A stretch of 64,000 bases of DNA from Haplodiscus bocki (GCA_965655095.1 OZ296657.1:33790001-33854000); one strand, 5' to 3'; shown: positions 5,947 through 53,059, counted from the first letter of the stretch. Numbers and translations: made by a program. Notes: a model not told the origin generated them from the letters alone.

Positions 5947-7559
5947 TAATTGATGGAATTAACTGCAGAAGAAAAAATTGAGAGGTATGCTAAACAATGC
6001 ACACATTGTACACAGAACACATTACCACCATATGCATGCGAATGGACTTGTTGCTCATGTTGATATATTGCGAATAAACGAAAAAACGAACTAACAAAGA
6101 ACCAATGCAAAAAGTAACAGACTAAAAAATGCTGAGGAAAAAAGATTTTGTGTGTTTGTATTGCTTATATAAAAATTATGAAGATAGTAACTGCAGGGAA
6201 ATTTTTGAAGTTTTTATCAAGAGTAGAAAAGAACAGAAAATAAATTTTGAAAAAAATACTCGAGAACTATAAAAAAAATATTCAGATTTTCAATGATACG
6301 ACTATTATGTTAACAGCAAAAGTATTTGTAAAAGTGGACCTGATAGTATTTGAATAAAGAAATGGATGCCATGTTATGATAGATATTATGAAAGCATAAA
6401 CTAAAAAATTACCATTGAGCGTTTTCGCCGCTCTAAAAGAAATATCTGAAAAATAATATTTATGTAGATGTAAGAGATGAAAGATATATTATTCATGCAA
6501 CAGAAAAAACTTTATTAGGAAAACGAAAACCACCAAACTCTTTGAGAATTCTATATCAAATACAAAAGGAAACAAAAGTTAGAAAGAACCAAAACATATC
6601 AGAACAGAAAACAAACAATCAGAAATCAAACCTTCTCCAAAACGAAAATCAAACGAAAAACAAAAAAACCTTAAAAAAATATTAAATATCCAAGCTGCAA
6701 TCAACGTAAATGGATTGAATTTGATAGAAGATGTTTTTTTGTCAAAATTGTGAACTTATTTTTATTAAACAAAAACATCAATTAGATAAAAAGAGTACTC
6801 AAACAGGACAAGATTTTTTCTACGAGACTGTCTGATGCGAACAAAAAATCAGGGAGATATTTTTCTATGATGAGTAAAAAGTTTCAGACAATGGAATGTA
6901 TGATTGAGAAGTTTTGAAGTTTAGAAGGGAAAACAAAAATATTTATCAAGGTATAAGTGTTTATTATGATGGAATGAATTATTTGCGACAAAACAACACG
7001 TTTCAACTTGAAGAGGATCCTTTTGATAAAAATGCTCAAGGTACAATATTTATCATGCATGATATACTAAATCTAATGAAATTTATACAGAACAAACCAC
7101 AGGTTAAAAGTGAGAATATAATTTTTTATGACTTGTATAATACTGTTATTGGAAACTTGACTGAGGAGGAGAAAAATCAGGTTTCATAAAAAAAATTTCA
7201 AAATTTCTGAATTGTACAAAAAAAAGGACGCAAAATGCAAATGGTCCACAGATGTGAAATTTGAAATAGTGATATTCACAGAGCATCATTTGGTAACTTT
7301 TTATAATCAAAGAAGCATTTGAAAAACTTAGGACAAGAGATTACGATTACACCAGACTGGTTATTCCAAGAACCTAATGAAAAAGTTAACAATCCGGCCG
7401 GCTAGCACCAGCATATTTTTCGCCCAACTACAATAGTTTTGATCAACTTTTGCAAACGGTTAAAATCAAAACTAGTGTTTTGATATTAGTTTTCAAACGA
7501 GCTTTACAAACATCAGTTCGACCAATGATTTCTGTTTTTTATGCCAAAAGGTATCACTA

Positions 7560-32539: not shown

Positions 32540-32900
32540 TATGGAAAAGCATGCGCAAATTTCATACGATTACGATAATGTATCCTAATGAATAAAAATT
32601 TGAGTTGAAATACTCATGAAAAACATTAGATTACAGTGTGAAGTTCAAAACTTCTGGCAATCATATGACTGGGGAACATAATAAAAGCCATCTACGTTCA
32701 TTTTTGGTTGTCTGGAAAGAAAAAGGAAATCTTGTGAAATCCCATTCCCAAAAAGTATAGTCTAAAGTGATGTAGTGTTGGACAAACTAGGACAAAGCTT
32801 TAAGTCTTTCTTTCCTAACAAAAACGTGGAAATTTAAATTCTGAAAGATTCCGACGGGCGTTCCCATTGGCAGGTCTTGAAGTTTTCAAGAGCTTTTAAC
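32540..32900 (+). repeat. Dispersed repeat; inverted homolog at ~51500-51860
   Basis: gtgtgaagttcaaaacttctggcaa and ggcaggtcttgaagttttc match the reverse complements ttgccagaagtttcgaacttcacac and gaaaatttcaagacctgc. Confidence 0.7.
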
Positions 32901-35100: not shown

Positions 35101-36242
35101 AGAAAAATACTTAGTACAAGATATTCACTGGTAATAAACTTTAAAAAACAGGTAAAATGGAAAATTCAGGATGCGTATGTTCTCAAAAGAACCAACTTGA
35201 TAATGGAGACCACATGGACACATGAGCAATTGCCTGAACGATGATTTTTTTAAAAAAAAGTTAGAAACTATTAGAAATTTTAGAACACAAAGGAATGAAA
35301 TAATTTGAAAGTTGGACGATTGAGTTATATACATCTTGCTCTGAGATTGCCTTACACAATTATATCTATACACGCATAAAAGTGCTGCAAAATGTTTTGT
35401 GAAATGCTTACCAAGCAAGGAATGAATTGATGAAATTAACTAAGGGGAATTCAGTGGAATCGAAGGCAAAAAATTGAATGTTTCGAAATAACTTTCTCAT
35501 ATATTGAATAGGTGGTCGTAGTCATTTTTAATTCTTCATACCGATTATGAAGTCTCTTAAGATGAATCACTTCATACTCCAGATGAGGAGTTCATTGATG
35601 ATGAAGATCTCTTCTAGTGCAGCAGAAAGTTGGAGCGGTAAAAATTCCTAATAACTGGTGGTCTATCAATTTAATTTAACTCTCGCTGTAGGACTTAAAA
35701 TTCTTTCCTAGCAAGGTACCAGCAGCTATCTGTCTGGTTTGGAATGGTTTTCGAAAAACTATTGTTATATCCACAAGCAGCGAAGCATTACCGATGATAA
35801 TCTGCCGCTTTTTTATAGCTTTGTTCAGCATAAAATGGCGTTTTGTAATCAATAAAGAATAATTCTTCAATCATTTTATTGAGCTTCTGAAAATAAAAGT
35901 AATAGAATCAGATTGTTATGAAAAAAAACGAGCAGAAAGTACCAAACCTTTTCACCAGGGATGCATCCACAAATACAAGAAGCGTTAATTCAACCCAAAA
36001 ATGTGCGAGAAGAATCAGTTTTCCCAAATGTTCTACGAAAGAAATGTTATTTTTTGCTCAAGCTACTTCCCGACTAGTATCGGTGAGGAAACGATTCTTG
36101 TCAGAAACAAACTAAAAGATATCATGCACCCTTCAATCAAGACGTTGGCACTGTTTTGTTCAGTCATCGCAGTTCGAAAAATGATTCCGAAAAACAATCC
36201 CTCAAAAAAATTGAGATTGATAAGCTATACCGCATTACTTAC

Positions 36243-37620
36243 TATCGCGTTACGCATAACGCTCTAACGTTAATTAATTAAAACATGATTGACTAATGAA
36301 AGCTAACCTTTTGAGGGACTGTCGTTTGATATATAAAAGAAATAGAAAAGCTGAAGAAAATAAATAAAACAATGGAGTTGCATAAATAATTTTTTACAAA
36401 AACTCTAACGCGAGCTTTTTTCCTATTGGCTCCTGCTGCGACAAGCAAAAATCCATGACTGCTACAAGCCTTTTTCCTATTGGTTGCATGAAACGGCAGC
36501 ATGCTGTTATTCTGGAGTCGATCTGGGAAACGGACTTGATCATAACTCGCTTTCCCGCTCAGCGGACGGGACTCCTTACTCCTCTTCTGACTTGCCTTAC
36601 CTTTTTACTTTACTCTTCTTCTCCCTTTTACTTGGAAAAGTTATTCTAAGTCCAACTCCCTTTCTCCCTTTTTCCTCTTGGACGAAAATTTTCTGAATCC
36701 AATTCCCCTTATCTTTCCTCTGGGACAAAAATATTCTAAGTCCAACTTCAATTCCACAAAATTATTCTAAGACAACTCCAAATTCTGTCTTAGCTGCAAT
36801 TTCATTCGCACTTCGCAAAATTATTCTAAGACACTTCCAAATTCTGTCCTAGCCGCAATTTCATTCCCACTCCGCAAAATTATTCCAAGACAATTCCAAA
36901 TTCTGTCTTAGCCGCAAATTCACTCTCATTTCACAAAATTATTCTAAGACAATCCTAAATTCTGTCTTAGCCGCTACATCATTTCAATCCTACAAAATAT
37001 TCTAAGTCCCAATTCTTCCTTACTTAGAAAAATTCCCCTTTCCCTGCTTATTTTACATACTCTTGCCATCGGAGTATAAACGGTCTCCACTGACGCTAGC
37101 TTCGGCATTGGCGTGTGCGGGTTCCGTGGATGAACTTAGGTTCTGAAGCTTGAGTGGATCTTAAATACGCACGAACCCTCACGAGGTTCTTAGGCAAAGA
37201 GAATTGACGTTACTCATAGACCATTCTCAACTCGTCTGCTTCCATGGTCTTTAGAATTTATTCTAAATTGCGAGTTATGGATTAAGAACGCAGAAACCGT
37301 CCATCCTTGATTTCCTTACTTCCATTCCTTGCATTGATTTGATACTTCCTACTCGATTCCTTCGCAAGTCAGGCCAAAAAGAGGAGAGTCCCTGAGTTAT
37401 CAGGAGATCATCCAGCTCCATCAACGGTAACCGTTAGTTAAACAGTTTCCTAGTTCAGACTGAGTAAATCTCTCTGATCAATTTTGACGTTTCATAAATC
37501 CCTTCCGCATTACGCGCTAGACAAACCACTCGGTTTGAAAGAAAGGGAGCTAAGAGAACATCATCAGGTTGCCGCTAAAACGCGAGCTTTTACCTGAGTA
37601 ATAGACAGAAATTAAACCAA
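36243..37620 (+). repeat. 5' LTR plus leader (LTR 3' boundary and PBS not resolved)
   Basis: Homologous to 48356-49612; TATA-like tatataaaag (36329) and gtataaac (37075); CCAAT-type ctattgg boxes. Confidence 0.7.
36757..36992 (+). repeat. 59-bp tandem hairpin array in the LTR (4 units; 2 units in the second LTR)
   Basis: Units at 36757, 36816, 36875 and 36934, each containing ctaagaca-N11-tgtcttag or a one-mismatch variant. Confidence 0.9.
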
Positions 37621-37639
37621 ATCAAACCCCGCCAATAAA

Positions 37640-38748
37640 TCGCCGCCGGAGATGGTGAAGAAATCCGAAATTTTCTTCATCGCATCAAGAAAACTGTGGA
37701 AAAAGGATGGCCAGACGATATGGAAGGAATTGCCCCAGCAGACCGTGGCGCTGAAAGAGCAGCTCAAGGACGACAAAGAAGACAGAGATACATCGACTAC
37801 TCTCTAGAAGGACTCAGACCGAGATATCTACAACGAAAAGCACAGGAGTATCTAATGGAAAACCCGAATGCTACATGGAATGACTTCTCAACGCGAATAA
37901 TTCAGAGGGATGTGTCCTTCCAAGTCTCTTCTAACTTTTTAAACGATGAAGAACAAACCAAAGCTCAGATGGCCACTCTGGGCCAAGAGATGAAGAATCT
38001 ACGATCAGAATCACAAGAACACCGAGTCAACGCCGTAGAGGGAAGCTCTCGAACAGTAGATCCAAATCAAAAAGGAAGACAGAATGCTACACGTTTTTGC
38101 AACTATTGCCGCACAAACGGACATACTCCAAGTTGGTGCCGCAAGAAGATACGGGACGAAGAACTGAAACGAATTGAAAACGAAAGAACTGCCGAGAAGA
38201 CAGTCACCTTTACCCAAGACTACAACAAAAAACGAGGACCAGATCATGGATCGCAACAATGGACTAGAGGTCAGGATTTCCAAGGGAGAAATAACAATTA
38301 TAATAACGACGGATTTAGAAGTTCCCCAAATAATTATCAAAATTTCTCTCCAAGACCAAACTCCGCATATGGGAATAACCGCCCAAACAATGGAGGATCA
38401 CTTGATCAACTACCAAATCAATCATTCAATGGAAACGATGGAAATAGATCCCGAAATGGATCCTTCAACAATCAGAATGGAAGCTGGCGGAACAATGGGA
38501 ACTTTTTCCGTTCTCCATCAAATCCAAGAAGAGATCTCTCACAAAACAATTCCTATCGCCCACCAGGAAATGAACAACCCAACAACTTTGCGTTTCGCAG
38601 ATCTGACAATCGACCTACAGCACACTTTACACCCTATGAACAGAAATTTCCGCAGAACAATAATCAGACATCATCTAATGTGGTTCGTTTCACCACAACC
38701 GATGATACCATAAACGAATTATCGGATCTTTGCCCGTTAAACTACTAA
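37640..38748 (+). CDS. gag: gag (apparently N-terminally truncated) with CCHC zinc knuckle and N/Q/R-rich tail
   Basis: CNYCRTNGHTPSWC (CX2CX4HX4C) at ~38098-38139. The open frame starts without an ATG at GDGEEIRNFLHRIKK. Confidence 0.85.
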
Positions 38749-38794
38749 GGTCTCCGAACTTGAACACTGACACATCTCGGAATTCAAGACTTAG
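38736..38794 (+). promoter_or_regulatory. Putative -1 ribosomal frameshift signal (G TTA AAC plus downstream stem)
   Basis: Heptamer is in gag phase, one codon before the TAA; pol lies in the -1 frame. Complementary pairs tccga/tcgga, cttgaa/ttcaag and ctaag/cttag follow. Confidence 0.7.
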
Positions 38795-39614
38795 CCTCAA
38801 CATCTTCTACTTCGCCACCGGAGACACTCAAAAAGATACTGGTTTAGAGATCGAATTCATGTTAGACACAGGAGCTTCTTGCTCAATCATCAATTACCGA
38901 ACATTTTGGGAAATTTGCCAATTACAGCACCCAATAACTATACAGAAAAGTACCAAAGTGACAAAGACTTACTCCGGACAAACAGTTCCAATGATCGGCT
39001 ATGCGACTATCACTTTTAGTTATGACCCAGATGGACAATTTATATTCCCACTAACAGTGTGGATCACTGATATGAGGACTCAGAATCTCCTTGGCATGGA
39101 CTTCTGCCAAAAACAGGTTTCTGGAATCCATTTTGATCTACCTGGGATCGAGATAAGGAACCCTCCTAAGTCAATCTGTTATGGCAGTTTCCACCAAAAC
39201 AAATCTTGTCCTCATTTATCACAAATCTTGACTATTAGAACCCTTCATACGATGCTTATTGATGCTAAGAGTGCCCGTTGCTGGAAATATTCGCCTACAG
39301 ACACTCATATACACTTCCCACCAAGCTCTACGTTTCAACCAAAACGAACTGCTGTGGCTACTGACCTGTTTTTCATAAATACTCTATGCACTCGATCTGA
39401 ATGTAACCTTCCAATATTGATGGAAAACAACAAAAATCACCAGATAACGCTACCAAAGGGACGTATCGGATTCTCTTCTTTTGACGTGGTTGATCGAGAC
39501 GAACCGAAATGCCAAATACGAAGTCCCTATGAGTTAACAAACGCTATAATCTCTACCGATGAACGATACAATGATTGTTTTCTCTTGCATTCAACGGTTC
39601 AAGCTCAGATTAGT

Positions 39615-40060
39615 GACGACTTTCTACAGATCACCTATGGTACAGAAGATTCAATTTTCCAACAACCTAATTCAATTGGACATTGCATATCCGCGGACGC
39701 CCGAATGGGTAAAAGTTTCGCTGATTTTCTTTCCCACAGAATCCCTGGTCTTAGATCAACCTGCCGAAAAGCAAAGCTTTTCATGCGACAAGTCTTCCCT
39801 TTTTGGGATTCAACAGGACAACGCTATATCTACAACTTGGTGACTAAAGGGAGGTTTTGTGATAAACCCAATTTACCAACACTGTCTAAAACATTAGAAG
39901 CAATGAAAATTCATGCAGGTACAAACGGTGTTTCTACTATCGCAATACCCAAACTTGGTTGTGTCCTAGATCAAACGAATTGGCAAGTGGTTGTAAAACT
40001 ACTTCGAGATATCTTCGCCTATGCTGACATATAAAATTGTAGACTATACTCTCGAAGAAA
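39615..40060 (+). other. TARG1/OARD1 (Poa1p-like) macrodomain within Pol
   Basis: SIGHCISADARMGK, YIYNLVTKGRFCDKP and IAIPKLGCVLDQTNWQVV are the hallmark motifs of the TARG1/DarG-like macrodomain class. Confidence 0.9.
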
Positions 40061-43000
40061 ATGGAGTTCACGCACTGTCCGCCAAAGGCGACGCTGAGTT
40101 CTATGCCGACGATGAGATAGAACGATACAGTGAAGAATTTCTCCTAGAGAACCGTGAGCTAGAAACAGACTTTACTAAAGATTCTAAATCCTGTCAACCA
40201 ACCTGTGACGAGCAATTTCCAGTTCTCCGTGAGAAGGTTCACAACAACCGACTCATTGATCATTATCTTCAATATCAGCCAAAAGAACTCAAAAACTACG
40301 TTAAAGAATTCGACTTCCAGTATTCAGACATCACTGACGAAGAAATGGTACTTTTGATTGACATGATAGTTGACGACGCGATGTTTATTCTCAACATAAA
40401 TTCGATGTGGGCAAAACCCGTCAGAACTTTCATGCCACACTGAAACCCAATGTTGAACTGAAACGAGAATGACCTATCAATGTTCCCCTACACCTGAAGG
40501 AAAAGCTAGAAAAACTCCTCACACAACTAAAAGACGCAGATATCATTCGCGAAATGGGTGACAACAACGAGATGGGATCATTATTTGTGAATCCGATCAT
40601 CCTAATGCCTAAAAACGATTATGTGAAATTAGTGATTGACGCGAGATACCTTAATTCAGTGACTGATCTTATAAACTACTCCTGGCCCTTAGAACCAGTG
40701 CAGATGATTATGACCAGGGTCAATGGCAAAAAATTCTCAGTAAGCGACCTTTCGTTTGCCTATCATCAAGTTCCATTGAGCCCAGAAACACAAAAGTTAA
40801 CTAGTTTCATCATTGGTGGAAAACAGTACACCTACACATGTGGATTTTATGGCTTGTGCGGACTCCCAAACTTCTTCAGCCGATTAATGACAATACGTTT
40901 TGACCCACTTATCAAGAAAGAGCAAGCAATCACCTACATTGATGATACAATAATGCAATCACAGAACAAGAACGAAATGTTCACAGTTATCAACGAGTAC
41001 CATACCCTTCTTCGGAAGGCAGGTCTTAAGGCAGCACCCGACAAAACGTTCTTCTTCTTAAAGAAAGTTTAATTTCTTGGCCATGTTATATCCTCAAAAG
41101 GAATCCAACCCATTGCGAAACGAGTAAAGGATTTAAAGGATCTTAAATCACCTGAAAGTAAACGAGACGTCATGAAAGTTCTTGGATGCCTTGGATTCTA
41201 CAGTTGCTATATTAAAAACCTCCATGTGGATAGTCAGCCCTTTTATGACTTAATTAGGGATTCGACCCCTTTCCACTGGACACACGAACACGAAAAATTG
41301 TTCCAAACGATCAAGGACAGAATTAGCGAAGACACGATCCTTGCTGTACCCTCCAATGATTATCCCTTTCACATTCACGTAGATTCATCGAATGTTGGAA
41401 CGGGCTGTATCCTAATCCAACAGTTTCCTGAGGGAAAACGAATAATCTCCTTCAACTCAAGAATTTTCGACAAAGCTAAACAGAAAATGTCTACTCTTCA
41501 TCGAGAACTTTGTGGAAAAGTCTCAGCCTTACAAACCTATGAACACTATATTATTGGATCTCCTTTTCCCATATATCTATATTGTGACCATAAACCATTC
41601 CTGTACTTATGGAGACGTAAAGGACAACTATCCCATCGGTTCTTCAGGTACCAAGTCATCATAACGAAATTCCAAAATCTCAAGATTATCTGGACCCCAG
41701 GATCAAATCATGTTTTCCCTGATATCTTAAGCCGAAACGTAACAGTCGAAGAATACCAGAAACATCAGCTACAACTTAAGAAAATACCTAGGGACATAGA
41801 ATTCTATGACGAACATGGCTCTCCAGCAACATATCGAATTCAACAGGATGATAATCCTAACGACACTTGCAATGACTTCTACCCAATCCATTGCCAACAA
41901 GGAATTGATAGCAAGGTACTCCGCTTGCATAATGATGGTGAAACTTTTACACTAAATAGTCTGATTAACGAGTTTCCTTCAACACCAATACAATCTGCAG
42001 CCGATTGTTTCCGATTAGGCAGAACATTCAATCAATTCCGACGTTTGCGTCTACCCTCAACTCAATCTTTGAACTCGGTAGAAGCCTCTGAACCTACTTA
42101 TAGTTCGATAAATTCATTGAACACTAGCGAAGATGATAATACATTCGAAGAGACCTATGATAACGAAGGCGATGCCGCCGCTGTTGACGATGAGGACAAC
42201 CTAATATGTGAAATGAACACACACGCCGACCACTACAGATTGTGCAAAGCCAAAGCAGCTCACGATGCTGTCTCAGGAAAATTAAACGCTTCCTTAGTTA
42301 AGAAACCACTAACAGTTAATGATGCACCGCATTTGGAAACTAAACCTTTAATTGCTAAACTAGATGATGTTGCTAAAACAGTTGATCTTGACGTATCCAC
42401 GATCCTGGCAGAATAAATTAAAGACCCAGTGCTTGGAACAGTTAGGTCATGGATCCGAAAAGGAATTTCACCCGAACCTAAAACTCCTGAGATTCAACAA
42501 ACAAAGGGACTCTTGAGATAATGTCAAGATTTCGATCGACTCTTAATTGAGGAAGAAGGACAACTCTTATGCTACAACGAAACTACTGACAAACTAGGCG
42601 ATGAAAACCTACGATTTTGCCTACCTTTATCCCTATTCTTAGCATGTTTCAGACTCGAACATTACAACGAAATGGGTGGAAACATGGCAGCCGCAAAGAC
42701 CTATAACAATGCAAAACGATTCTACTACTAGCCTGGCGTGTTTGATTGGATATGAGCGCTTACCGCTGATTGTCTCACTTGCCAAAAAAACAAACCGAAG
42801 CCTAAACACAGGAACGAAGTACCACTAGAAGAATGGCAAAACGAGACTGTCCCGTTCCGAACAATTCACGTAGATCACAAAGGACCACTTCACCCACCAA
42901 GTAATCGAAATCTTCATTGCCTCTTGGTCATCGATGCATTCTCTCGATTCTTAATGGTATACCCAGTTACTAACACGGGTGCTCAAGCTACTACTTCCGC

Positions 43001-44220
43001 CGTCGAGAAGTGGATTCATTCCTTCGGAATCCCTCAATCTATTGTGCATGATCGAGGTGCGGCTTTCATCAATACCGAATTCATTAACTGGACAAAAGAA
43101 TTGGGAATCACTTTACGACCTAGAACAGCACATTCACCTTGGACTAATGGCAAAATTGAAACTCAAAACCAACATATCGCCCGCTATTGCCAAAACTTCT
43201 TGAACGACGCTGAAACAATTGGTCTTCCTTGGCACCTAAATTTGCTTTTGCACACAACACAAGTGTTAACTATATAACTGGGAAAACACCTTATGAAATT
43301 GTTTTTGGTACCAAACTTCAGATCCCTATGTCTCTCAAACCTGGACTTTACCGCAACAAACACAAAATTTGCTGTTCTGATTTCTGCAAAGACCTACCAT
43401 CTCATTCACATAGTAAGAACAATTTAAAGAATCAGCTACTAGACAATGTTCTTCGACCACAACTTTCTCACGCCCTCCTGGAACGAGAACGCGATTTTCA
43501 AAAGAATCTACTCTGCTACTTTCGAAAGATGCCGCGAGCAAACAGCCAGATCACATGCCTACAGAAATCGATTCAAACCAGGACAACACTTAGAGATAGG
43601 ACAGAAGGTTCTCCATGAAAATCATCGCCAAGGCATTTCCAAGAGCCAAAAGCTTCAACAAAGACGACTCGGAACTTTCACGGTTATAAAATGAGTAACT
43701 AAAACAACCTACCAAATTCAAGATGATAAGGATCCTATGGTTCTGAAGAGCAAACTATTCTCCTCTCAGCCTTACAACAATTTACAAAATTTCCGCACTT
43801 CAAAAACACACATCCTTTAACTAGACACTTAGTCATGGAACTCATCCGTCAGTGTCAATCTTCGATCTCTGAAGATCAGGCAACAAGCCCAAAACGCAAC
43901 AAAACAAACCACGATTAAAGATATCCAATGGTTGAGGTGAGTTATTTTTACATATTGAATTTGGCACTTTTTTGGTGATACCGGTTTCATTCCGGCACCT
44001 TTTATAAAATCTCGACGTCGTTTTAACAGTAGTGGAGCTACTACTATAAAATTTTAGCCCCCACTTTGTGTTAGTGCCCACAAAGCGCCGGTTTGATATT
44101 ACGGCATTTTTTAATAGCTATTCCTCTGAAAAAATAGAGTGAACTTCCACTGGGAAACCCCGTGACGACGCTATTTTCCTTTTTTTTAATAGTTATTCCC
44201 TCTGAAGTAACATTCCAGAG

Positions 44221-46407
44221 ATGGAACGTCCGCTGCAAAGTTCAGCGACGACGCTATTTTTCTTTCAACTCCTCGTGTTTTGTTCCGAGGTTGGTTACAC
44301 TTTAGTTCCAGATGCAGACCAGGTTGCCCCAGCTCCTAAAGTGTCTCACTTCGACTGCAGCTCAATGACAGAAAACTCCCTTTATGCAATCAATCAAGTA
44401 CGGCCGTGTCACATTACACCAGAAGAACTGGAAGTCAGCAAAGCCACAATTACACTTTACACCAAACACTTTCGGAAAGAACTTAATGCAACAAAATGCC
44501 GAATACAACACCAACGCGAGAAGTGGCACTGCGTACATAACGACCATAGTAGCATTGACCACACTATTGCTGGAATAACCAGTGATTTGATTATCTCACC
44601 AGAACATTGCCGAACTCTTGCAAAAGGAGCCAATATCAATTTACAAGGCGACTGGATTGGCGCTGAATGGGACACAAAGACTCCTGTTGTTAAAGTTTCT
44701 GGTGATCCGTCAGGCTCAAATAGAAATCATTGCAAAACGAGAGGCTGGATTTCAAGGGATACCTTCATCATCCACATGCAGAAGACAACTCTAAAAGTCA
44801 CGATGGAAAAAGGAAAAGTGTTATGTGATATGGGATTGATTTTACCTTGCGCTTTAGAAGAACTTGGTTGCGAAACAACTTCACTCGACCCATATGCCTA
44901 CACCTGGGACTACCCTGACAATTGGTTGCTTTCCGTCCTCCGAACAGAAGAAGTCAACATGGTTAAACAAGACACAAAAGACTACGTCATTAGCGGGAAG
45001 GACTCTACGTCCAAATTTGTGTTTGAAGTTAAACATAATCCACAAAAACATTGCGGGAAGCCTACACCTATTTATCCGACAAATTAAGACTCTTTGTATA
45101 TGGCCCGACTTAGTGAAGGTTTCGACAAGAACACTGGAAGAAACCTTGACCGTGAGAAGAACGGCGCAACTAAAATTCTTCAGTAATTCGGACCGAGAGC
45201 GAAAAATGACTTTGGTCAACTCTATGCGCATAACCCTCAATTGGAAGGCACTCAGTTACAACAAGCAGACAACCCGAATAGCTACTTGAACATGGATTAC
45301 GAAATGCACCTCGGAACCAAGATAGACTATCTGTTCTTCCAAAGTTCGAGACTCCTCCAAGCGACTGAAATACAGCTACTACAGAACCAATGTGAACAAG
45401 AGCGCACCCAGATTTTCACTAATCTGATGCTCGCTCTCGACAACCCACGGTTACCAGGCTATATGCTAACAGGGAATAGATCTATGTTCCTAGAAACAGA
45501 CGGCAGCCTTGCCTGGCTCTATCATTGTCCGAAGGTCCACTCCCCACTCCATACGATGAATCAGTACTATGATAAGATACCCATACTCTACGAAGGTGAA
45601 ATTCGCCTCGTCGACCCAATTACACGACAAACTTATCCTGACGCTGTTCCACAGAACTGCTCAGATCGGATCCAGAACCTCTTCCAACTTGATATGGATC
45701 AAGAAGATTCCTGGTACACACTCACGCCTGGCATAGTACACCAGGACAGATCCGCTATCTTTGGACCTAAGAAGATAACACCGATGTCTGCGCAGTCTCT
45801 CACTGGATCACAGGATGCCGGCATGTATACAAGAAACGAACTTCGCGGATTCTGGGACAATATTCTCATTAATGCAGCTTCAAGAACCGCGCTAAAAAAG
45901 TTTTCCCAGAACCTGATTATTTACTCTACTTCTCCGGAAGGATCTGACGGATTCCACTATTACACTCCCAGAATTGAATTTTATGTGGACAAAATGATAT
46001 CCCGGAATGCTTCAAAGACCGGTTCATGGACACGTTTGGACCTGTTGCATATGTACTTGAACACTGCGGGATTTATTTCTCTGTGTTTTTATTTTTCAAA
46101 CTCATAATAGACGTTGTGGTTATGGTAATACGCCACTTACAAATCTCTAGAATGACCGGTGCATCGCTTGGGTTCGGTAAGACCCTTCTAAGCGCCTCAT
46201 ATAACATCTTCCTCATGTCAGTGTTAACTTCAATGTATGATCCACGCACGCCTACACTCGCCGCGGTAGAAGAAGAAAGAAAAACTCTCTGTAACGGAGA
46301 AGAGTTACATGATATGAGAGACACTCCTACGAAAAAGGAGGAGCATATTTATCCTGTCATGAACCGGCTCAATTTAACCAAGCCGTGACACCAATTTCCC
46401 CCGTTTA
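44221..46407 (+). pseudogene. env: env-like glycoprotein, chuvirus-G-like / class III fusogen
   Basis: Signal peptide MERPLQSSATTLFFFQLLVFCS. Cys pattern HFDC..RPC..TKCRI..WHC(V)HNDHSS, then heptad LQATEIQLLQNQCEQER. C-terminal TM CGIYFSVFLFFKLIIDVVVMVI. Two stops (45085, 45184) and frameshifts near the 3' end. Confidence 0.8.
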
Positions 46408-46456
46408 ATTTTGTCTTACTTTTTTTAGGCCAAATTACACTCAATCCTTCCACCTT

Positions 46457-47052
46457 GTGACGATTCTCTTTCAGTCATCTCCGACCCAGAAGAAGATTTC
46501 CGACCCTTTACGCCCTCAGGCTTGGACCATCCTACTAACTCTGGCATCACTTTCCTATCTCCTATCTCTTCTCACTCACAGATACCCTCTAACCCAGCTT
46601 AGCCTGATGAGCCGCAATCTCTAACCTTGCTATCGACTAGTCAGCCCCCACCTATACACCAAGACGACGCCCCTCCTACATTAATTGGCTCACAAATCCC
46701 AATTTCTTCACCTGAAGCTAGTCCTTCCGAAGACAACCAAGAACTTCCCCCACTTAGTTCCTTTCTCTCTGACGTTCGGCCCCTTCTCTCCAGGCCTAAT
46801 CAACTCAAACTTCAACCTGATCAATCTGTTCTTGGACGCCAACACCGTCGTGAATATTACACAAATCATGCCCGCAGAACAAAACGACCCCGCTTTAATC
46901 AACAATTACAATATTGCCTCAAACCAGAGTTCTGCAAGTGGGAAAAAATATTTTGGGATGGCAAGCGTCAAGAATATACAATTCAGAGCACATCTCTCCC
47001 GTCTCAACGCCTGGTAGTACCGCCACAGGCAATCACAGCACTTCCTCACTGA
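46457..47052 (+). pseudogene. Accessory ORF of unknown function (Pro/Ser-rich, basic NLS-like RRTKRPR)
   Basis: Frame of ORF 46627-47052 extends upstream through one stop. Its TGA overlaps the next ATG (TGATG 47050-47054). Confidence 0.5.
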
Positions 47053-48314
47053 TGTCGCTAAATCCTCTTGCACCCGTTTTCCTTCCTCCTCCTCAACCTT
47101 CCTCTGACCCACCTATTTTGTTGTGCAACCCTCCTACAATGGGTATTCCCTTGGCTCAATTAGTTTGCGGAATGCTCCCACAAACTCTTCCCTCTCATGC
47201 TCCTTCTACCAACCAGCACATTGTTGACAACACTCTCCTCTTACCTCTTCTCCAGCCGACAACTCAGTTTTAGCCGGACGCAGCAGTTCCCCCGCCAGCC
47301 CCTGGAACCACTTGAATACAGAACAAATAGACAGGCAAACATTACGACTCATTCTACTCCAATTACAAAATGATTTTGCCTTACTGCGATATTTACTCTT
47401 CTCTAACAAGGAGTTCGCCGCTAGACGCTCTGCTGCCAGTCCTTTACCTAACCCTAAGCCTAACCCTACTTCCACTTCTTCTGCTCTTCCACATTGAGGC
47501 CCTCGTGACCCCACACTTCATCGTCTTACCCCGGTGGGCGCTGTGGGAACAGCCAAAACAAGAACAAACGATACTACACACACCAATTCTCAGCCGACAC
47601 CCAACTCGCACGAAGCCCCTTCGATCAAATTGCAGAACCTTACATCAAGATTCTCCAAATTAGAAAAGTTGTTTGCCAATGAAGTATCAAGTTACACATC
47701 CATCACTGCGGGAATCCACTCCCAATACTTTTTCCTATACGATAAACTTCGCCAGCTCGAACCTGGACATTCAGATGTCATTATTTGGAAAATCCCAAAT
47801 CCCCTCAGTGAAGTTTGTATTTGACTCCGCAAAAGTGGCCCGACCATCATCAGATCCCCTCATCGAACCAGCTACAAGTTTCAGCAGCCCCATTTTCAGG
47901 ACTCACCCCCATGGCTATAACTTCTTCATCAAACTCTACCCGTATGGTATTGGACCCGCTACGGGTAAGTGCGCTTCGATCCTATTCACACTTTTCCCAG
48001 GAGACTATGACAATCTTCTCCAATGGCCCTTCACAAACATCATCCATATTGGTATTCGAGACCAGCTGGACCCAATGAACACCTGGATGAAGACAATCAA
48101 ACCCGATCAAGACCCAGCTTACAAGAAGCCTACAATGACAACAAAAACTGGAGTTGCAACAAGCCTAATTAATAACTTTATTCCCCACTCCAAACTGTTT
48201 AGGGAAACTGAAGGTTCTCTAATTGATGGTGCGTTCTTTATTGAGATTAAATTTTCTGACCCGCTTGTGCTGGAACCTCACACGCAAACTTCCCTCCTTT
48301 TCCCTTTTCCGTAG
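47052..48314 (+). pseudogene. Accessory ORF: PAM2-like motif + Pro-rich + coiled coil + TRAF-type MATH domain (no RING)
   Basis: VIIWKIP..SFSSPIFRTHPHGYNFFIKLYPYGIG..SILFTLFPGDYDNLLQWPF..IRDQ..AYKKP..NFIPHSKL..FFIEI is TRAF-C. Removing a 7-bp duplication (aaatccc 47790-47803) restores the frame. Confidence 0.88.
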
Positions 48315-48340
48315 AGCCCCTCACTCATTTTCACTTCCCT

Positions 48341-48352
48341 TTGAGCGGGGTG
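48341..48352 (+). promoter_or_regulatory. Short polypurine-tract-like site before the second LTR
   Basis: ttgagcggggtg immediately precedes agttatcgcg, where LTR homology begins. Confidence 0.5.
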
Positions 48353-49612
48353 AGTTATCGCGTTACGCATAACGCTCAAACGTTAATTAATTAAAACATG
48401 ATTGACTAAGGAAAGCTAACTTTTGAGGGGTTGTCGTTTGATATATAAAAGGAATAGAAAAGCTGAAGAAAATAAATGAACCAATGGAGTTGCATAAATA
48501 ATTTTTTACAAGAATTCTAACGCAAGCTTTTTTCCTATTGGCTCCTGCTGCTACAAGCAAAAATCCTTGACTGATACAAGCCTTTTTCCTATTGGTTGCA
48601 TGAAACGGCAGCATGCTGTTATTCTGGAGTCGATGTGGGAAACGGACTTGATCATAACTCGCTTTCCCGGTCAGCAGACGGGACTCTTACTCCTCTTCTG
48701 ACTTGCCTTACCTTTTTACTTTACTCTTCTTCTCCCTTTTACTTGGAAAAGTTATTCTAAGTCCAACTCCCTTTCTCCCTTTTTCCTCTTGGACGAAAAT
48801 TTTCTAAGTCCAATTCCCTTATCTTTCCTCTGGGACAAAAATATTCTAAGTCCAATTTCAATTCCACAAAATTATTCTAAGACAATTCCAAATTCTATCT
48901 TAGCCGCAAATTCACTCTCATTTCACAAAATTATTCTAAGACAATCCTAAATTCTGTCTTAGCCGCTACATCATTTCAATCCTACAAAATATTCTAAGTC
49001 CCAATTCTTCCTTACTTAGAAAAATTCCCCTTTCCCTGCTTATTTTACATACTCTTGCCATCGGAGTATAAACGGTCTCCACTGACGCTAGCTTCGGCAT
49101 TGGCGTGTGCGGGTTCCGTGGATGAACTTAGGTTCTGAAGCTTGAGTGGATCTTAAATACGCACGAACCCTCACGAGGTTCTTAGGCAAAGAGAATTGAC
49201 GTTACTCATAGACCATTCTCAACTCGTCTGCTTCCATGGTCTTTAGAATTTATTCTAAATTGCGAGTTATGGATTAAGAACGCAGAAACCGTCCATCCTT
49301 GATTTCCTTACTTCCATTCCTTGCATTGATTTGATACTTCCTACTCGATTCCTTCGCAAGTCAGGCCAAAAAGAGGAGAGTCCCTGAGTTATCAGGAGAT
49401 CATCCAGCTCCATCAACGGTAACCGTTAGTTAAACAGTTTCCTAGTTCAGACTGAGTAAATCTCTCTGATCAATTTTGACGTTTCATAAATCCCTTCCGC
49501 ATTACGCGCTAGACAAAGCACTCGGTTTGAAAGAAAGGGAGCTAAGAGAACATCATCAGGTTGCCGCTAAAACGCGAGCTTTTACCTGAGTAATAGACAG
49601 AAATTAAACCAA
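48353..49612 (+). repeat. Second (shared) LTR plus leader
   Basis: Copy of 36243-37620 with two fewer 59-bp units. Confidence 0.8.
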
Positions 49613-49631
49613 ATCAAACCCCGCCAATAAA

Positions 49632-50740
49632 TCGCCGCCGGAGATGGTGAAGAAATCCGAAATTTTCTTCATCGCATCAAGAAAACTGTGGAAAAAGGAT
49701 GGCCAGACGATATGGAAGGAATTGCCCCAGCAGACCGTGGCGCTGAAAGAGCAGCTCAAGGACGACAAAGAAGACAGAGATACATCGACTACTCTCTAGA
49801 AGGACTCAGACCGAGATATCTACAACGAAAAGCACAGGAGTATCTAATGGAAAACCCGAATGCTACATGGAATGACTTCTCAACGCGAATAATTCAGAGG
49901 GATGTGTCCTTCCAAGTCTCTTCTAACTTTTTAAACGATGAAGAACAAACCAAAGCTCAGATGGCCACTCTGGGCCAAGAGATGAAGAATCTACTTTCAG
50001 AAATACAAGAACGCCGAGTTAACGCAGTAGAAGGAAGTTCTCGAACAGTAGATCCAAACCAAAAGGGAAGACAGAATGCTACACGATTTTGCAACTATTG
50101 CCGCACAAACGGACATACTCCAAGTTGGTGCCGCAAGAAGATACGGGACGAAGAACTGAAACGAATTGAAAACGAAAGAACTGCCGAGAAGACAGTCACC
50201 TTTACCCAAGACTACAACAAAAAACGAGGACCAGATCATGGATCGCAACAATGGACTAGAGGTCAGGATTTCCAAGGGAGAAATAACAATTATAATAACG
50301 ACGGATTTAGAAGTTCCCCAAATAATTATCAAAATTTCTCTCCAAGACCAAACTCCGCATATGGGAATAACCGCCCAAACAATGGAGGATCACTTGATCA
50401 ACTACCAAATCAATCATTCAATGGAAACGATGGAAATAGATCCCGAAATGGATCCTTCAACAATCAGAATGGAAGCTGGCGGAACAATGGGAACTTTTTC
50501 CGTTCTCCATCAAATCCAAGAAGAGATCTCTCACAAAACAATTCCTATCGCCCACCAGGAAATGAACAACCCAACAACTTTGCGTTTCGCAGATCTGACA
50601 ATCGACCTACAGCACACTTTACACCCTATGAACAGAAATTTCCGCAGAACAATAATCAGACATCATCTAATGTGGTTCGTTTCACCACAACCGATGATAC
50701 CATAAACGAATTATCGGATCTTTGCCCGTTAAACTACTAA
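49632..50740 (+). CDS. gag: gag, second copy (same N-terminal truncation)
   Basis: 350-aa ORF nearly identical to 37696-38748. Confidence 0.85.
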
Positions 50741-50965
50741 GGTCTCCGAACTTGAACACTGACACATCTCGGAATTCAAGACTTAGCCTCAACATCTTCT
50801 ACTTCGCCACCGGAGACACTCAAAAAGATACTGGTTTAGAGATCGAATTCATGTTAGACACAGGAGCTTCTTGCTCAATCATCAATTACCGAACATTTTG
50901 GGAAATTTGCCAATTACAGCACCCAATAACTATACAGAAAAGTACCAAAGTGACAAAGACTTACT
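50722..50965 (+). pseudogene. pol: Truncated pol (protease N-terminal half), second copy
   Basis: LDTGAS present; homology to copy 1 stops after gacttact (50965). Confidence 0.9.
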
Positions 50966-53059
50966 TCTGCTACTATCGCTAATGCGTGATTCATTTTCCA
51001 TTAGCGCAGTTGTTTCTTTTCCCATTTGATTATATTTGCTTCCCCGGATGACTGAATAATTGATTATTTCACTTTCAATTTTCCCTCCATCGCTCATAAA
51101 GTCCTTGCTTTGAACTTACGCAATTTTTGTTCGCGAGGCCTGCAAGGCACCTGAAAGTAGATCAATAAAAGCCCCTGAGACTTATTTCCATTAAACAAAA
51201 CAACTGCTGCGGCGCCACCGCTGTATTGATCTAGCTAACAAAAGGAACGCTAATCACCTGCAGCACTAATCGAGAGAGAAAATTAGAACTAGAAAAAGAA
51301 TTAAATTCAAGCATTAGTTCTACTCTCCGCATGCCCGTAGTAATATAGCGTTCCCCCTTACCCCCTCGCGACATTACTTTCATTGCCAATATATTCTGCT
51401 AGAAAAGAAATTCTTTTTGAAAAAATATTTACCCAGTAAGTTTTAAAGGACGTCTGAACTGTGCTTCTGTAACGAAAAAAAACAAGTAAAGATTAGTGAG
51501 TTCTGAAAATTTCAAGACCTGCTACTGGGACAGCGACTTTCAGAGCTCTTGTCAAGAAAGAAAGACTTTGTAACTTTGTCCGAGTTTTCGCAACACTATA
51601 TCACTGCAGGCAATACCTTTCGGAAACGGCCTTTCACTACTTCTCTCCTATCTGATTCGAGGCAAAAAGTGAACCTAGATGTTTAATATTTTGATCTATT
51701 TATTATGATCCTCAGTCATACTTTTGCCAGAAGTTTCGAACTTCACACTTCAAGGCAGTGTTTTTGTTTTCCATGAGTATTTTGAGTCAGATTCACGCTC
51801 ACTAGAATCTAGAATACGTTATCACAATCTAACAAAATTCGCGCAATCTTTTCCGTATTTTGGCATAAGATCCAGTTTATGGCTTGCATGGAATCGTCAT
51901 ATAATATGTTTTTTCAATGAATTGCATGTTACTATACCCTTCTATGGAACTTCAGCAATGAACTGTCCAATTTAAAAAATTAACTGATAAATATTAGCTA
52001 TAATCCCAACAAGTCTTTACCTCCTTACTGAATAGCTTTCTGGAAAAATTATCCATACTTTCTGGACTGGCAGCTCTTTATTCATTGGGTCAACAAGATT
52101 TGTGTGAAACTGAGAGTTCACTTAAATGGCTTGTTGGCAGACAGCTGGTTTTTGAGGTGAACATTCTCTCACTTCTTGAAAATTTTCTCACTCAGAAGAC
52201 TTGGTCGACTTTTAAGGAAGGTTTTACGAAACGCATTGCAAATAGTAGACGAGCCCATTTCAACTCATTCAGAACCACACTTCAAAGGTTCTCGGGAAGT
52301 TGTTTTGCACATTTTTCGGCATTTTTAAAGTTTTGAAATGTAGCATTTAATTAGAAGAAGAAGAAGAAAAAGAAAAAGAGTTTATTTCTCTATCAGTAAA
52401 AATACAGTACAACAATTTATCACGGAAACAAAGTTATAGAGTAAACAACAAATGGACCACACGGGACTTTTTTTACTGTGGCCCACAAGACCAAATATTC
52501 ATCAATTCAACGAAACCTCAGTCAAGCCAAGTCAAAACATGATAATAACGAGATAACACATCCCAAAAAAATATAACACAGAAATGGTCAATTTTTTTTC
52601 AGTATTTCAGTTTTTCAGAACCTTTTTGCAAATTGATAGCAAAAAAACCCAAACAGAGACCTTGGCCAACATTAATTGCATTTTGAAATCAGCACGGATT
52701 TTCAGCTGAACCGATTTCTGTCAGAGATAAATCCGAAAAACTCACTTAGCAAATAGGAAAGCGAAAAAAATCGGAACATTTTTGCCCATACCCTACACTT
52801 GCTTCATTTTCTCCCGGGCCCTGCCAACCAAAACCTCTTCCCTCTAGTAACACCGCCTTGTACCGATAGACCTCTGATAGTTCCATCCACTGGACATGGA
52901 CCGTCTAACTTAGCTCAAACAGAGTGGGGATTGGTTGGCAGAACCACTACGAGAATACGAGGTGAAGCATAAACTCAAAGAATATGAAAAAAAAAGATGA
53001 AAGTTCATCGACAGTTTTTAACAGACAAAGATGTAGTTGACCAGACCACTGTTCCCTAG

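Follow-up and report, generated by a model that had tools for sequence, protein, structure and literature searches.

A retroelement bounded by long terminal repeats (LTRs) lies in a stretch of 64,000 nucleotides of the Haplodiscus bocki genome (GCA_965655095.1 OZ296657.1:33790001-33854000; this whole stretch is hereafter called the window). Besides gag, pol and an envelope gene (env) it contains a macrodomain within pol and further open reading frames (ORFs), the last of which, ORF F, ends in a TRAF MATH domain. Are these extra genes proper parts of the element and, if so, what do they do for it? The initial annotation of the window saw a complex, virus-like retroelement whose extra genes belong to the family, and this was upheld: the genes are carried by 10/10 other copies and are under purifying selection. 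We conclude that purifying selection maintains gag, the −1-frame pol, env and about eight accessory ORFs, which are all fixed components of the family. Judged by its anatomy, the element works like a complex retrovirus. The best reading of the accessory genes, to which we give a probability of roughly one half, is that they counter host defence.

Copies of the element and selection on its genes

Ten other copies were taken as rows 2-11 of the 40 scored DNA matches to the MATH region. In all ten the macrodomain was located upstream and the 3′ LTR downstream of MATH. The macrodomain and MATH ORFs are, therefore, not one-off insertions into the window copy. First-look searches produced 5968 candidates for the macrodomain, 5192 for the ORF F protein and 1423 for MATH DNA, which are not copy numbers. 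A 14-base word from the primer site was found 2474 times, compared to 31 occurrences of its reversed control; sister families may share the word. The family probably consists of thousands of copies.

Young loci revealed a full element of ~20 kb. The LTRs of two young copies are ~2.4 and ~2.5 kb long, with ends TATCGCG...CGCGACA. In one copy the two LTRs differ by a single base in 2389, in the other by four in 2492 (99.96% and 99.84% identity); the near-identity of these pairs indicates that the family was active very recently.

Selection was assessed by comparing the codons of one young copy with those of mutually agreeing pairs of older copies, that is, between two lineages. The ratio of nonsynonymous to synonymous differences per site (pN/pS) was obtained by simple site counting with no transition correction, so that neutral values are somewhat below 1, and was bootstrapped over codons. 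Within pol the ratio was 0.03 for the protease, 0.06 for the domain behind it, 0.08 (0.03-0.18) between subfamilies for the macrodomain and 0.01 for the reverse transcriptase (RT); env gave 0.09 and 0.07. The small ORFs gave 0.05 (A), 0.24 (AS), 0.35 (B0), 0.28 (B), 0.08 (C), 0.25 (D) and 0.18 (E), and in ORF F the values were 0.38 for the linker, 0.17 for the coiled coil and 0.10 (0.05-0.17) for MATH. Neutral evolution of the ORFs was thus not seen, their ratios of 0.05-0.38 standing against 0.45-4.4 in shifted-frame controls. One sense frame over AS, an antisense ORF, gave 0.49, which is expected as a shadow but could reflect a real gene. Private changes also gave ratios below 1 (0.37-0.76, apart from 1.41 in the ORF F linker), partly from sub-lineages.

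The ORFs might, conversely, be neutral cargo, host genes picked up once, or sequences domesticated by the host. The state of the window copy and of its ten nearest copies, all riddled with stops and frame changes, would agree with this. The scored matches, however, argue against it: 85 of 86 matches to the young ORF F protein had no stop, and 21 of the 86 were found 11.9-12.1 kb from one of 150 macrodomain matches on the same strand, where 0.17 were expected. This fixed spacing inside LTRs, the dispersal of copies across all 12 large contigs, and the selection seen when subfamilies are compared (off-frame controls gave values around 1 or higher) leave the explanation largely refuted and very improbable. 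Among the 150 scored macrodomain matches, 40 were within pol frames of at least 1840 codons and five had a stop inside the macrodomain.

Encoded proteins and what they may do

In other copies gag has 479 amino acids (aa), the pol frame ~1847 codons, and env is separate and downstream. The N-terminal part of gag matches Retrotrans_gag (PF03732) in these copies. Pfam scans revealed the order protease, RT, RNase H and integrase, which is that of Ty3/Gypsy (Metaviridae) elements, and Ty3-type C-terminal integrase families were detected in another copy. The best PDB match of the RT was Ty3 RT (E 6e-15, versus 1e-6 to 3e-5 for retroviral and caulimoviral enzymes), which is a ranking and not a reference phylogeny; an RT tree was small and unrooted, with 10 rows of relatives. 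LTRs, a tRNA primer site, a purine tract and a short target duplication are present as in Ty3/Gypsy elements. With the RT, one metagenome contig of 1.1 kb was found, too short for context. The earlier claim that pol follows gag in the −1 frame was borne out by the reading frames. The candidate slippery word GTTAAAC is also known from arteriviruses; no strong stimulatory fold was found behind it (−3.9 kcal/mol over 70 nt). Between protease and macrodomain (~39120-39600) there is a conserved domain of 160 aa, the one with a pN/pS of 0.06, that has no Pfam match; its position is that of the dUTPase-like domain in Burro and rotifer elements.

The macrodomain sits between protease and RT. The Pfam scan missed it, and its only sequence matches in the PDB were five TARG1/OARD1 entries, the best of them human 4j5q (E 8e-21), in line with the initial annotation of a TARG1-type macrodomain embedded in pol. 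By its best structure-database matches it is of the TARG1/DarG type, in contrast to the macrodomains of corona- and alphaviruses, which are of the MacroD type. A lysine and an aspartate, at the positions of K84 and D125 of TARG1, are conserved in 11/11 older copies. These two residues form the catalytic pair of TARG1, an enzyme that is active where DNA is damaged and can undo the ADP-ribosylation of DNA (PMC9967889, in the text available). The domain looks like a catalytically complete ADP-ribose eraser and, since it is within pol, should be packaged in the particle. Among 157 proteins checked in a search of 1.84 billion proteins, mostly fragments of this family, none contained macrodomain and RT together.

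The accessory genes may serve replication instead of counteracting defence. The macrodomain would then clear the ends of cDNA, or the sites of integration, of ADP-ribose linked to repair; F would be a scaffold for RNA localisation or particle assembly. We consider this possible but rather doubtful. The location of the macrodomain inside pol, its conservation, equal to that of protease and RT, and the activity of TARG1 on damaged DNA are all in its favour; relatives, however, replicate without macrodomain or MATH, which are thus not core needs.

A natural open copy of env matches the Monjiviricetes fusion glycoprotein family PF24664 (E 2e-38); the young copy L029 encodes 729 aa. Its Atlas neighbours (0.93-0.96; low recognition, 1656) were Monjiviricetes G, herpes gB and rhabdovirus G. 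The protein has 16 cysteines and one transmembrane stretch, only residues 612-642 exceeding the hydrophobicity cut-off, and no furin word. No match to env was found among PDB sequences, viral contigs or phage records. The profiles suggest that env is homologous to class III fusogens, as in gB-type errantiviruses. The class III transmembrane Env of ~720 codons described initially was recovered, at ~728 codons, with the PF24664 match and the hydrophobic stretch, but in the window it is broken.

The accessory genes were mapped on the 3′ part of L029 and on a stop-codon map over nine and seven older loci, which gave the order A, AS, B0, B, C, D, env, E, F behind pol. No Pfam or PHROG family was found for A, AS, B0, B, D or E, and ORF C has only a weak match to DUF6378 (E 0.04); matches to KilA-N and BRWD1_N were dismissed as below cut-off. 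ORF A has 258 database relatives, of which those listed are all from ENA assemblies. A structural model of A (confidence score, pLDDT, 66) found no counterpart, with a best Z of 4.2 in 48,161 PDB chains and a best E of 0.28 in viral models.

Retrovirus-like splicing around env is predicted. Behind ORF D, an ATG and the GT of a splice donor are both intact in 9/11 older copies; in shuffled sequence the expectation is 0.03 such sites per 7.6 kb. ORF E lacks a start codon and opens precisely at a pyrimidine-rich acceptor whose phase equals that of the donor (AG in 9/11), so that a splice over env would supply it with an ATG. The stop codon of E overlaps the ATG of F, as TGATG in 10/11 copies and TAATG in the young copy, a pattern of stop-start re-initiation. 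B0 and B abut as stop-ATG, and C and D overlap. No RNA data set was listed as containing the accessory region. In four contig runs of unrecorded kind from one study, none of the 15 joints listed, with 139 others beyond the listing, was of the GT-AG type; this speaks neither for nor against splicing or expression. Two direct repeats of 47 bp (74%; 44136-44182 and 44219-44265) cover a pyrimidine-rich acceptor-like site and the env start. Perfect splice-donor words, identical in 11/11 copies, were also noted at the junction of purine tract and LTR (48347-48355) and inside MATH (~47961-47969); the same two words are at 7399 and 7014 in L029. A shortened F made by splicing is possible.

ORF F encodes one protein of ~455 aa (453-496 aa in other copies), with a PAM2-like N terminus, a long linker rich in Pro, Ser, Gln and Asn, a coiled coil and MATH. 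The initial annotation had listed two further 3′ ORFs, PAM2 and a TRAF MATH domain. The PAM2-like motif (at 47052) and MATH are there, but they belong to one ORF; their assignment to separate ORFs was rejected on the basis of the single ORF in other copies. The protein has 484 database relatives at E ≤0.001, of which the 120 listed are all from ENA assemblies and 68-100% identical. PAM2 positions L3, N4, A7, F10 and P12 (numbered as in the accessible text of bioRxiv 2026.01.10.698208) are conserved in 86, 91, 90, 92 and 91, respectively, of the 93 proteins among these 120 that cover them, while the next two residues vary. No RING or zinc finger was detected in Pfam scans of ORF F, and CxxC is absent from 120/120 proteins listed. 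TRAF1 was among the PDB matches of the MATH region. A trimer model of coil and MATH scored 0.65, compared to 0.03 for the best control, with 82% of contacts agreeing between runs and pLDDT of at least 73; the mark used for such scores was reached by 21/30 solved homo-pairs, 0/23 monomers and 7/16 animal pairs. Because solved TRAF trimers exist, this result shows likeness only. It is likely, on the model, which solved TRAFs perhaps helped, that coil and MATH form a TRAF-like trimer.

The host genome yielded 31 PARP-domain matches, one zf-TRAF match and one MLLE match, the sole MLLE found being a half domain on one exon. One host gene is UBR5-like by its sequence. Together with a genome size of 1.5 Gb, the PARP and zf-TRAF domains and this gene suggest an animal host. 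Some PARP-domain matches are in very long frames of 1700-2500 codons, sometimes two per frame (contig C12 72.98-74.38 Mb, and others).

If the accessory genes do counter host defence, the following course of events can be proposed. Genome-length RNA would direct synthesis of Gag and Gag-Pol, and the macrodomain would thus enter the particle, where it might remove ADP-ribose from nascent cDNA or viral proteins. Splicing over env would yield an mRNA for protein E and then, by stop-start re-initiation, protein F. F would trimerise like a TRAF and, with no RING or zinc fingers, might act as a non-ubiquitinating TRAF-like adaptor or decoy; N-terminally truncated TRAF proteins behave dominant-negatively. 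Its N-terminal PAM2 would dock on MLLE proteins, either poly(A)-binding protein or UBR5. The net effect would most likely be protection of element RNA and DNA and damping of host stress, immune or cell-death signalling where the element replicates.

If, on the other hand, the genes serve replication, F would use PAM2 to travel with poly(A)-binding protein, and MATH would serve for trimerisation. PAM2 does point to mRNA metabolism (bioRxiv 2026.01.10.698208); the pairing of MATH with BIR and BCL2-like domains in Burro points to signalling or cell death (PMC6431247; both as far as the accessible texts go). The genes may also manipulate cell survival or a germline or stem-cell niche, with F as an anti-apoptotic or pro-proliferative adaptor, and have no part in countering pathogen sensing. 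TRAF proteins also relay TNFR survival signals, which is consistent with such a role. The available text on Burro stresses apoptosis and ubiquitination (PMC6431247). No BIR, BCL2 or death-fold domain, however, was found in any accessory ORF scanned, and we regard manipulation of survival as unlikely.

Several observations weigh against a defence-countering role or against parts of the scheme built on it. Purifying selection demonstrates use by the element and is not proof of an anti-immune function. The pN/pS of the macrodomain resembles those of its pol neighbours (0.03-0.06), and nothing in it hints at an arms race. The groove word of MATH is not the one that the TRAF5-type match shows in the PDB alignment, and MATH partners, therefore, need not be immune receptors. 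PAM2 (PF07145) was matched at E 0.005 and 16.9 bits by a 30-aa piece, compared to a cut-off of 20, and not at all by the whole protein. A single-sequence model of env (pLDDT 34) was too low to give a fold, and its class III assignment rests on profiles. Confidence intervals for the small ORFs are wide, reaching 0.83 for D, 0.55 for B and 0.65 for B0, and the +1 control of D gave 0.45. Finally, the ten copies were chosen through MATH, and copies with a macrodomain but without MATH would have escaped the sample.

The accessory genes seem to have been acquired later than env. Database relatives with 74% RT identity skip the macrodomain, and a sister family in the same genome has many copies with pol frames near 1650 codons, which leave no room for it. 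In the one sister copy read (L037, 566-4617), an env of the same class, 38% identical, is directly behind pol; there was no match to A-F or AS. Behind its env this copy has an unrelated 517-aa coiled-coil ORF with no Pfam match, and the presence of a different coiled-coil protein at the same place agrees with a role of F in replication. Because near relatives without the macrodomain exist and the sister copy has env without MATH, env looks older, and the macrodomain, A-D, E and F look like later gains of this lineage that were then kept.

At its fullest, countering of host defence would mean, and we put this forward tentatively, that an endogenous, still active enveloped Metavirus arrived independently at the full organisation of a complex retrovirus. 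About nine accessory genes would be expressed from spliced, stop-start and antisense messages; a packaged TARG1-type eraser would reverse host ADP-ribosylation of cDNA or proteins, and a new PAM2-TRAF fusion would link TRAF signalling to poly(A)-binding protein or UBR5 and thereby silence defence. This would imply that LTR retrotransposons are restricted by PARPs and TRAF pathways in the animal lineage concerned. Accessory genes mark the measures of a host against its parasite. The element makes it testable whether protein-based innate pathways (PARPs, TRAFs), beyond small RNAs, restrict LTR elements outside vertebrates. In addition, with MATH and macrodomain copies in the thousands, annotations of this genome will overcount TRAF and macrodomain genes.

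The window copy and its terminal repeats

The window copy is a decayed, deleted, rearranged and dead member of the family. The unit had been taken to end at 48352. This end was rejected: the LTR is longer, and the insertion spans 36243-51373 with a 4-bp duplication, TTAC, on either side. The features of this copy, and those of the accessory region of L029, are listed in the table.

Table. Features of the window copy (window coordinates) and of the region behind pol in young copy L029.
Feature	Location	Strand	Remarks
Target-site duplication TTAC, left copy	36239..36242	.	identical 4 bases at 51374-51377
5′ LTR, first 1.4 kb, start TATCGCG	36243..37641	+	59-bp tandem array at 36747-37006
gag, only codons 113-479	37648..38748	+	N-terminal part deleted
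Candidate −1 slippery site GTTAAAC, gag/pol overlap	38736..38742	+	in 9/12 copies
Aspartic protease of pol	38841..39110	+	PF13650/PF13975, E 1e-4 to 2e-4, under curated cut-offs
TARG1/OARD1-type macrodomain within pol	39627..40031	+	PDB 4j5q, E 8e-21
RT (YIDD) and RNase H, interrupted by stops/frame changes	40473..41672	+	PF00078, PF17917, PF17919
Integrase core and C-terminal part, broken, terminates at 3.1-3.6 kb deletion	42855..43749	+	PF00665
Small ORF D, 3′ half	43739..43918	+	full length 114 aa in other copies
Three codons from ATG, then predicted splice donor GAG/GTGAGT	43928..43942	+	phase matches acceptor at 46429
env, Monjiviricetes-type (class III-like) glycoprotein, ~728 codons, broken	44221..46403	+	PF24664
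ORF E, ~207 codons, without own ATG, starts at predicted splice acceptor	46429..47052	+	stop at 46600
ORF F: PAM2-like motif, low-complexity linker, coiled coil, TRAF MATH	47052..48314	+	three frames here
Purine-rich tract ahead of 3′ LTR	48340..48355	+	pattern in 8/10 older and both young copies
3′ LTR, first part	48356..49633	+
Second copy of gag 3′ part and protease start, inside 3′ LTR	49640..50965	+	within 2.1-kb duplicate 48863-50965
3′ LTR, last 0.4 kb, end CGCGACA	50963..51373	+	LTR end matched in 8/10 other copies
Target-site duplication TTAC, right copy	51374..51377	.
ORF A	behind pol, L029		140 aa
ORF AS	L029 613-1215	antisense	~200 aa; acidic start, proline-rich middle; most variable part of element
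ORFs B0 and B	behind pol, L029		~70 aa each; 27% alike over 50 aa, E 0.007
ORF C	behind pol, L029		127 aa
ORF D	ahead of env, L029		114 aa

None of pol, env and the MATH ORF is open in the window, and the expectation of intact ORFs failed for this copy. Stops and frame changes divide pol into many pieces, env is interrupted by stops at 45085 and 45184 and changes frame near 46002-46095, and the MATH ORF is spread over three frames. The proximity of MATH to the second LTR, noted initially, was confirmed: MATH ends 41 bp before the repeat. A segment of 3.1-3.6 kb between pol and env, present in 10/10 other copies, is absent, and with it ORFs A, AS, B0, B, C and the 5′ half of D. The remainder of the 5′ LTR, the primer site, the leader and the first 112 gag codons were also deleted. 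According to the other copies (8/10), the LTR order is 36243-37641, then ~0.6 kb not in the window, then 50963-51373. The segment 36871-38973 is repeated at 48863-50965 with 99.2% identity. The duplicate carries the deletion junction and the LTR starts are mutually only 93-98% alike; the simplest history would therefore be an old insertion, then the deletion, then recent copying of the 5′ stretch into the 3′ LTR. The duplicate may also be an assembly error.

The 4-bp target duplication was exact in two of three insertions and matched at 3/4 bases in the third. The LTR ends are TA...CA, not TG...CA, in a 7-bp imperfect inverted repeat (window 36243/51373; L030-L033). The primer site begins with TGG 3 nt behind the LTR, and three bases likewise part the LTR from the purine tract. 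A tandem array of 59-bp units in the LTR has 2-4 units in the window and extends over ~3 kb in copy L018 (1-3000), an expansion that represents LTR-seeded satellite growth. No Rfam match was found in 14.5 kb of sequence. Diverged inverted copies of another repeat flank the element at 32582-32888 and 51504-51808.

Comparison with known elements

The novelty of the element was initially overstated: Gypsy elements with MATH_TRAF_C and a mononegavirus-like env, gB-type env genes and macrodomain ORFs in fish endogenous retroviruses (ERVs) have all been published. What follows on these systems reflects the portions of the cited sources that were available. A literature search returned no TARG1 macrodomain inside a Gypsy pol, PAM2-TRAF fusion or this gene set; Repbase, GyDB and Dfam, which were outside its scope, may catalogue the family. 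No macrodomain in a retrotransposon was mentioned in the available parts of PMC6338049, PMC4695847 and bioRxiv 2021.11.30.470311.

Fish epsilon-like ERVs can carry macrodomain ORFs (PMC4977317, citing Basta 2009). These are Retroviridae with the macrodomain as an additional ORF, whereas the present element has it within a Ty3/Gypsy pol. Human TARG1/OARD1 and bacterial DarG, the best structure-database matches, share the catalytic Lys and Asp with the present domain, which differs in being embedded in a polyprotein. Coiled coil and MATH are common to ORF F and TRAF1-like or N-terminally truncated TRAFs, while TRAF2-6 have an N-terminal RING and zinc fingers that ORF F does not. In contrast to TRAF1-like proteins, ORF F has an N-terminal PAM2-like motif, a long linker and an altered groove word, and is encoded by an element.

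LTR elements of bdelloids capture extra non-env ORF3s, typically on spliced messages, and contain a dUTPase-like domain in pol; they have one extra ORF, with esterase, exonuclease or F-type env cargo, and the present element has about nine (PMC5408684). A gB-type env is widespread on Ty3/gypsy elements termed ancient errantiviruses, which, like the present element, have a Ty3/gypsy pol and a separate gB-like env and are multi-copy and recently active; their furin site, of which there is none here, is not always kept (PMC13524379). The main text of that paper contains neither "macro" nor "TRAF" and describes no comparable cluster of accessory ORFs, and three 8-residue words of the element were absent from seven of its text supplements.

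Burro/GYPSM1 of planarians is a Gypsy-like LTR element with thousands of copies and MATH_TRAF_C in its polyprotein or an accessory ORF; its env matches mononegavirus fusion glycoproteins, and BIR and BCL2-like domains are also present (PMC6431247). Element-encoded MATH_TRAF_C, a mononegavirus-like env and an extra domain between protease and RT are common to Burro and the present element. Burro is larger than 30 kb and has a gag-env-pol polyprotein of ~4,900-5,100 aa with BIR, BCL2-like, ankyrin and SUMO-like parts, whereas the present element, of ~20 kb, has separate gag, pol and env in that order, a TARG1 macrodomain, a PAM2-MATH fusion and small ORFs. No BIR, BCL2-like or ankyrin domain was found in Pfam scans of gag, pol parts and accessory ORFs. 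Membership in Burro was rejected for lack of the giant polyprotein and of these three domains. On its sequence features the element is a Ty3/Gypsy (errantivirus-like) element with a gB-class-like env, and not a Burro. Together, the two suggest repeated capture of TRAF domains by enveloped Gypsy elements.

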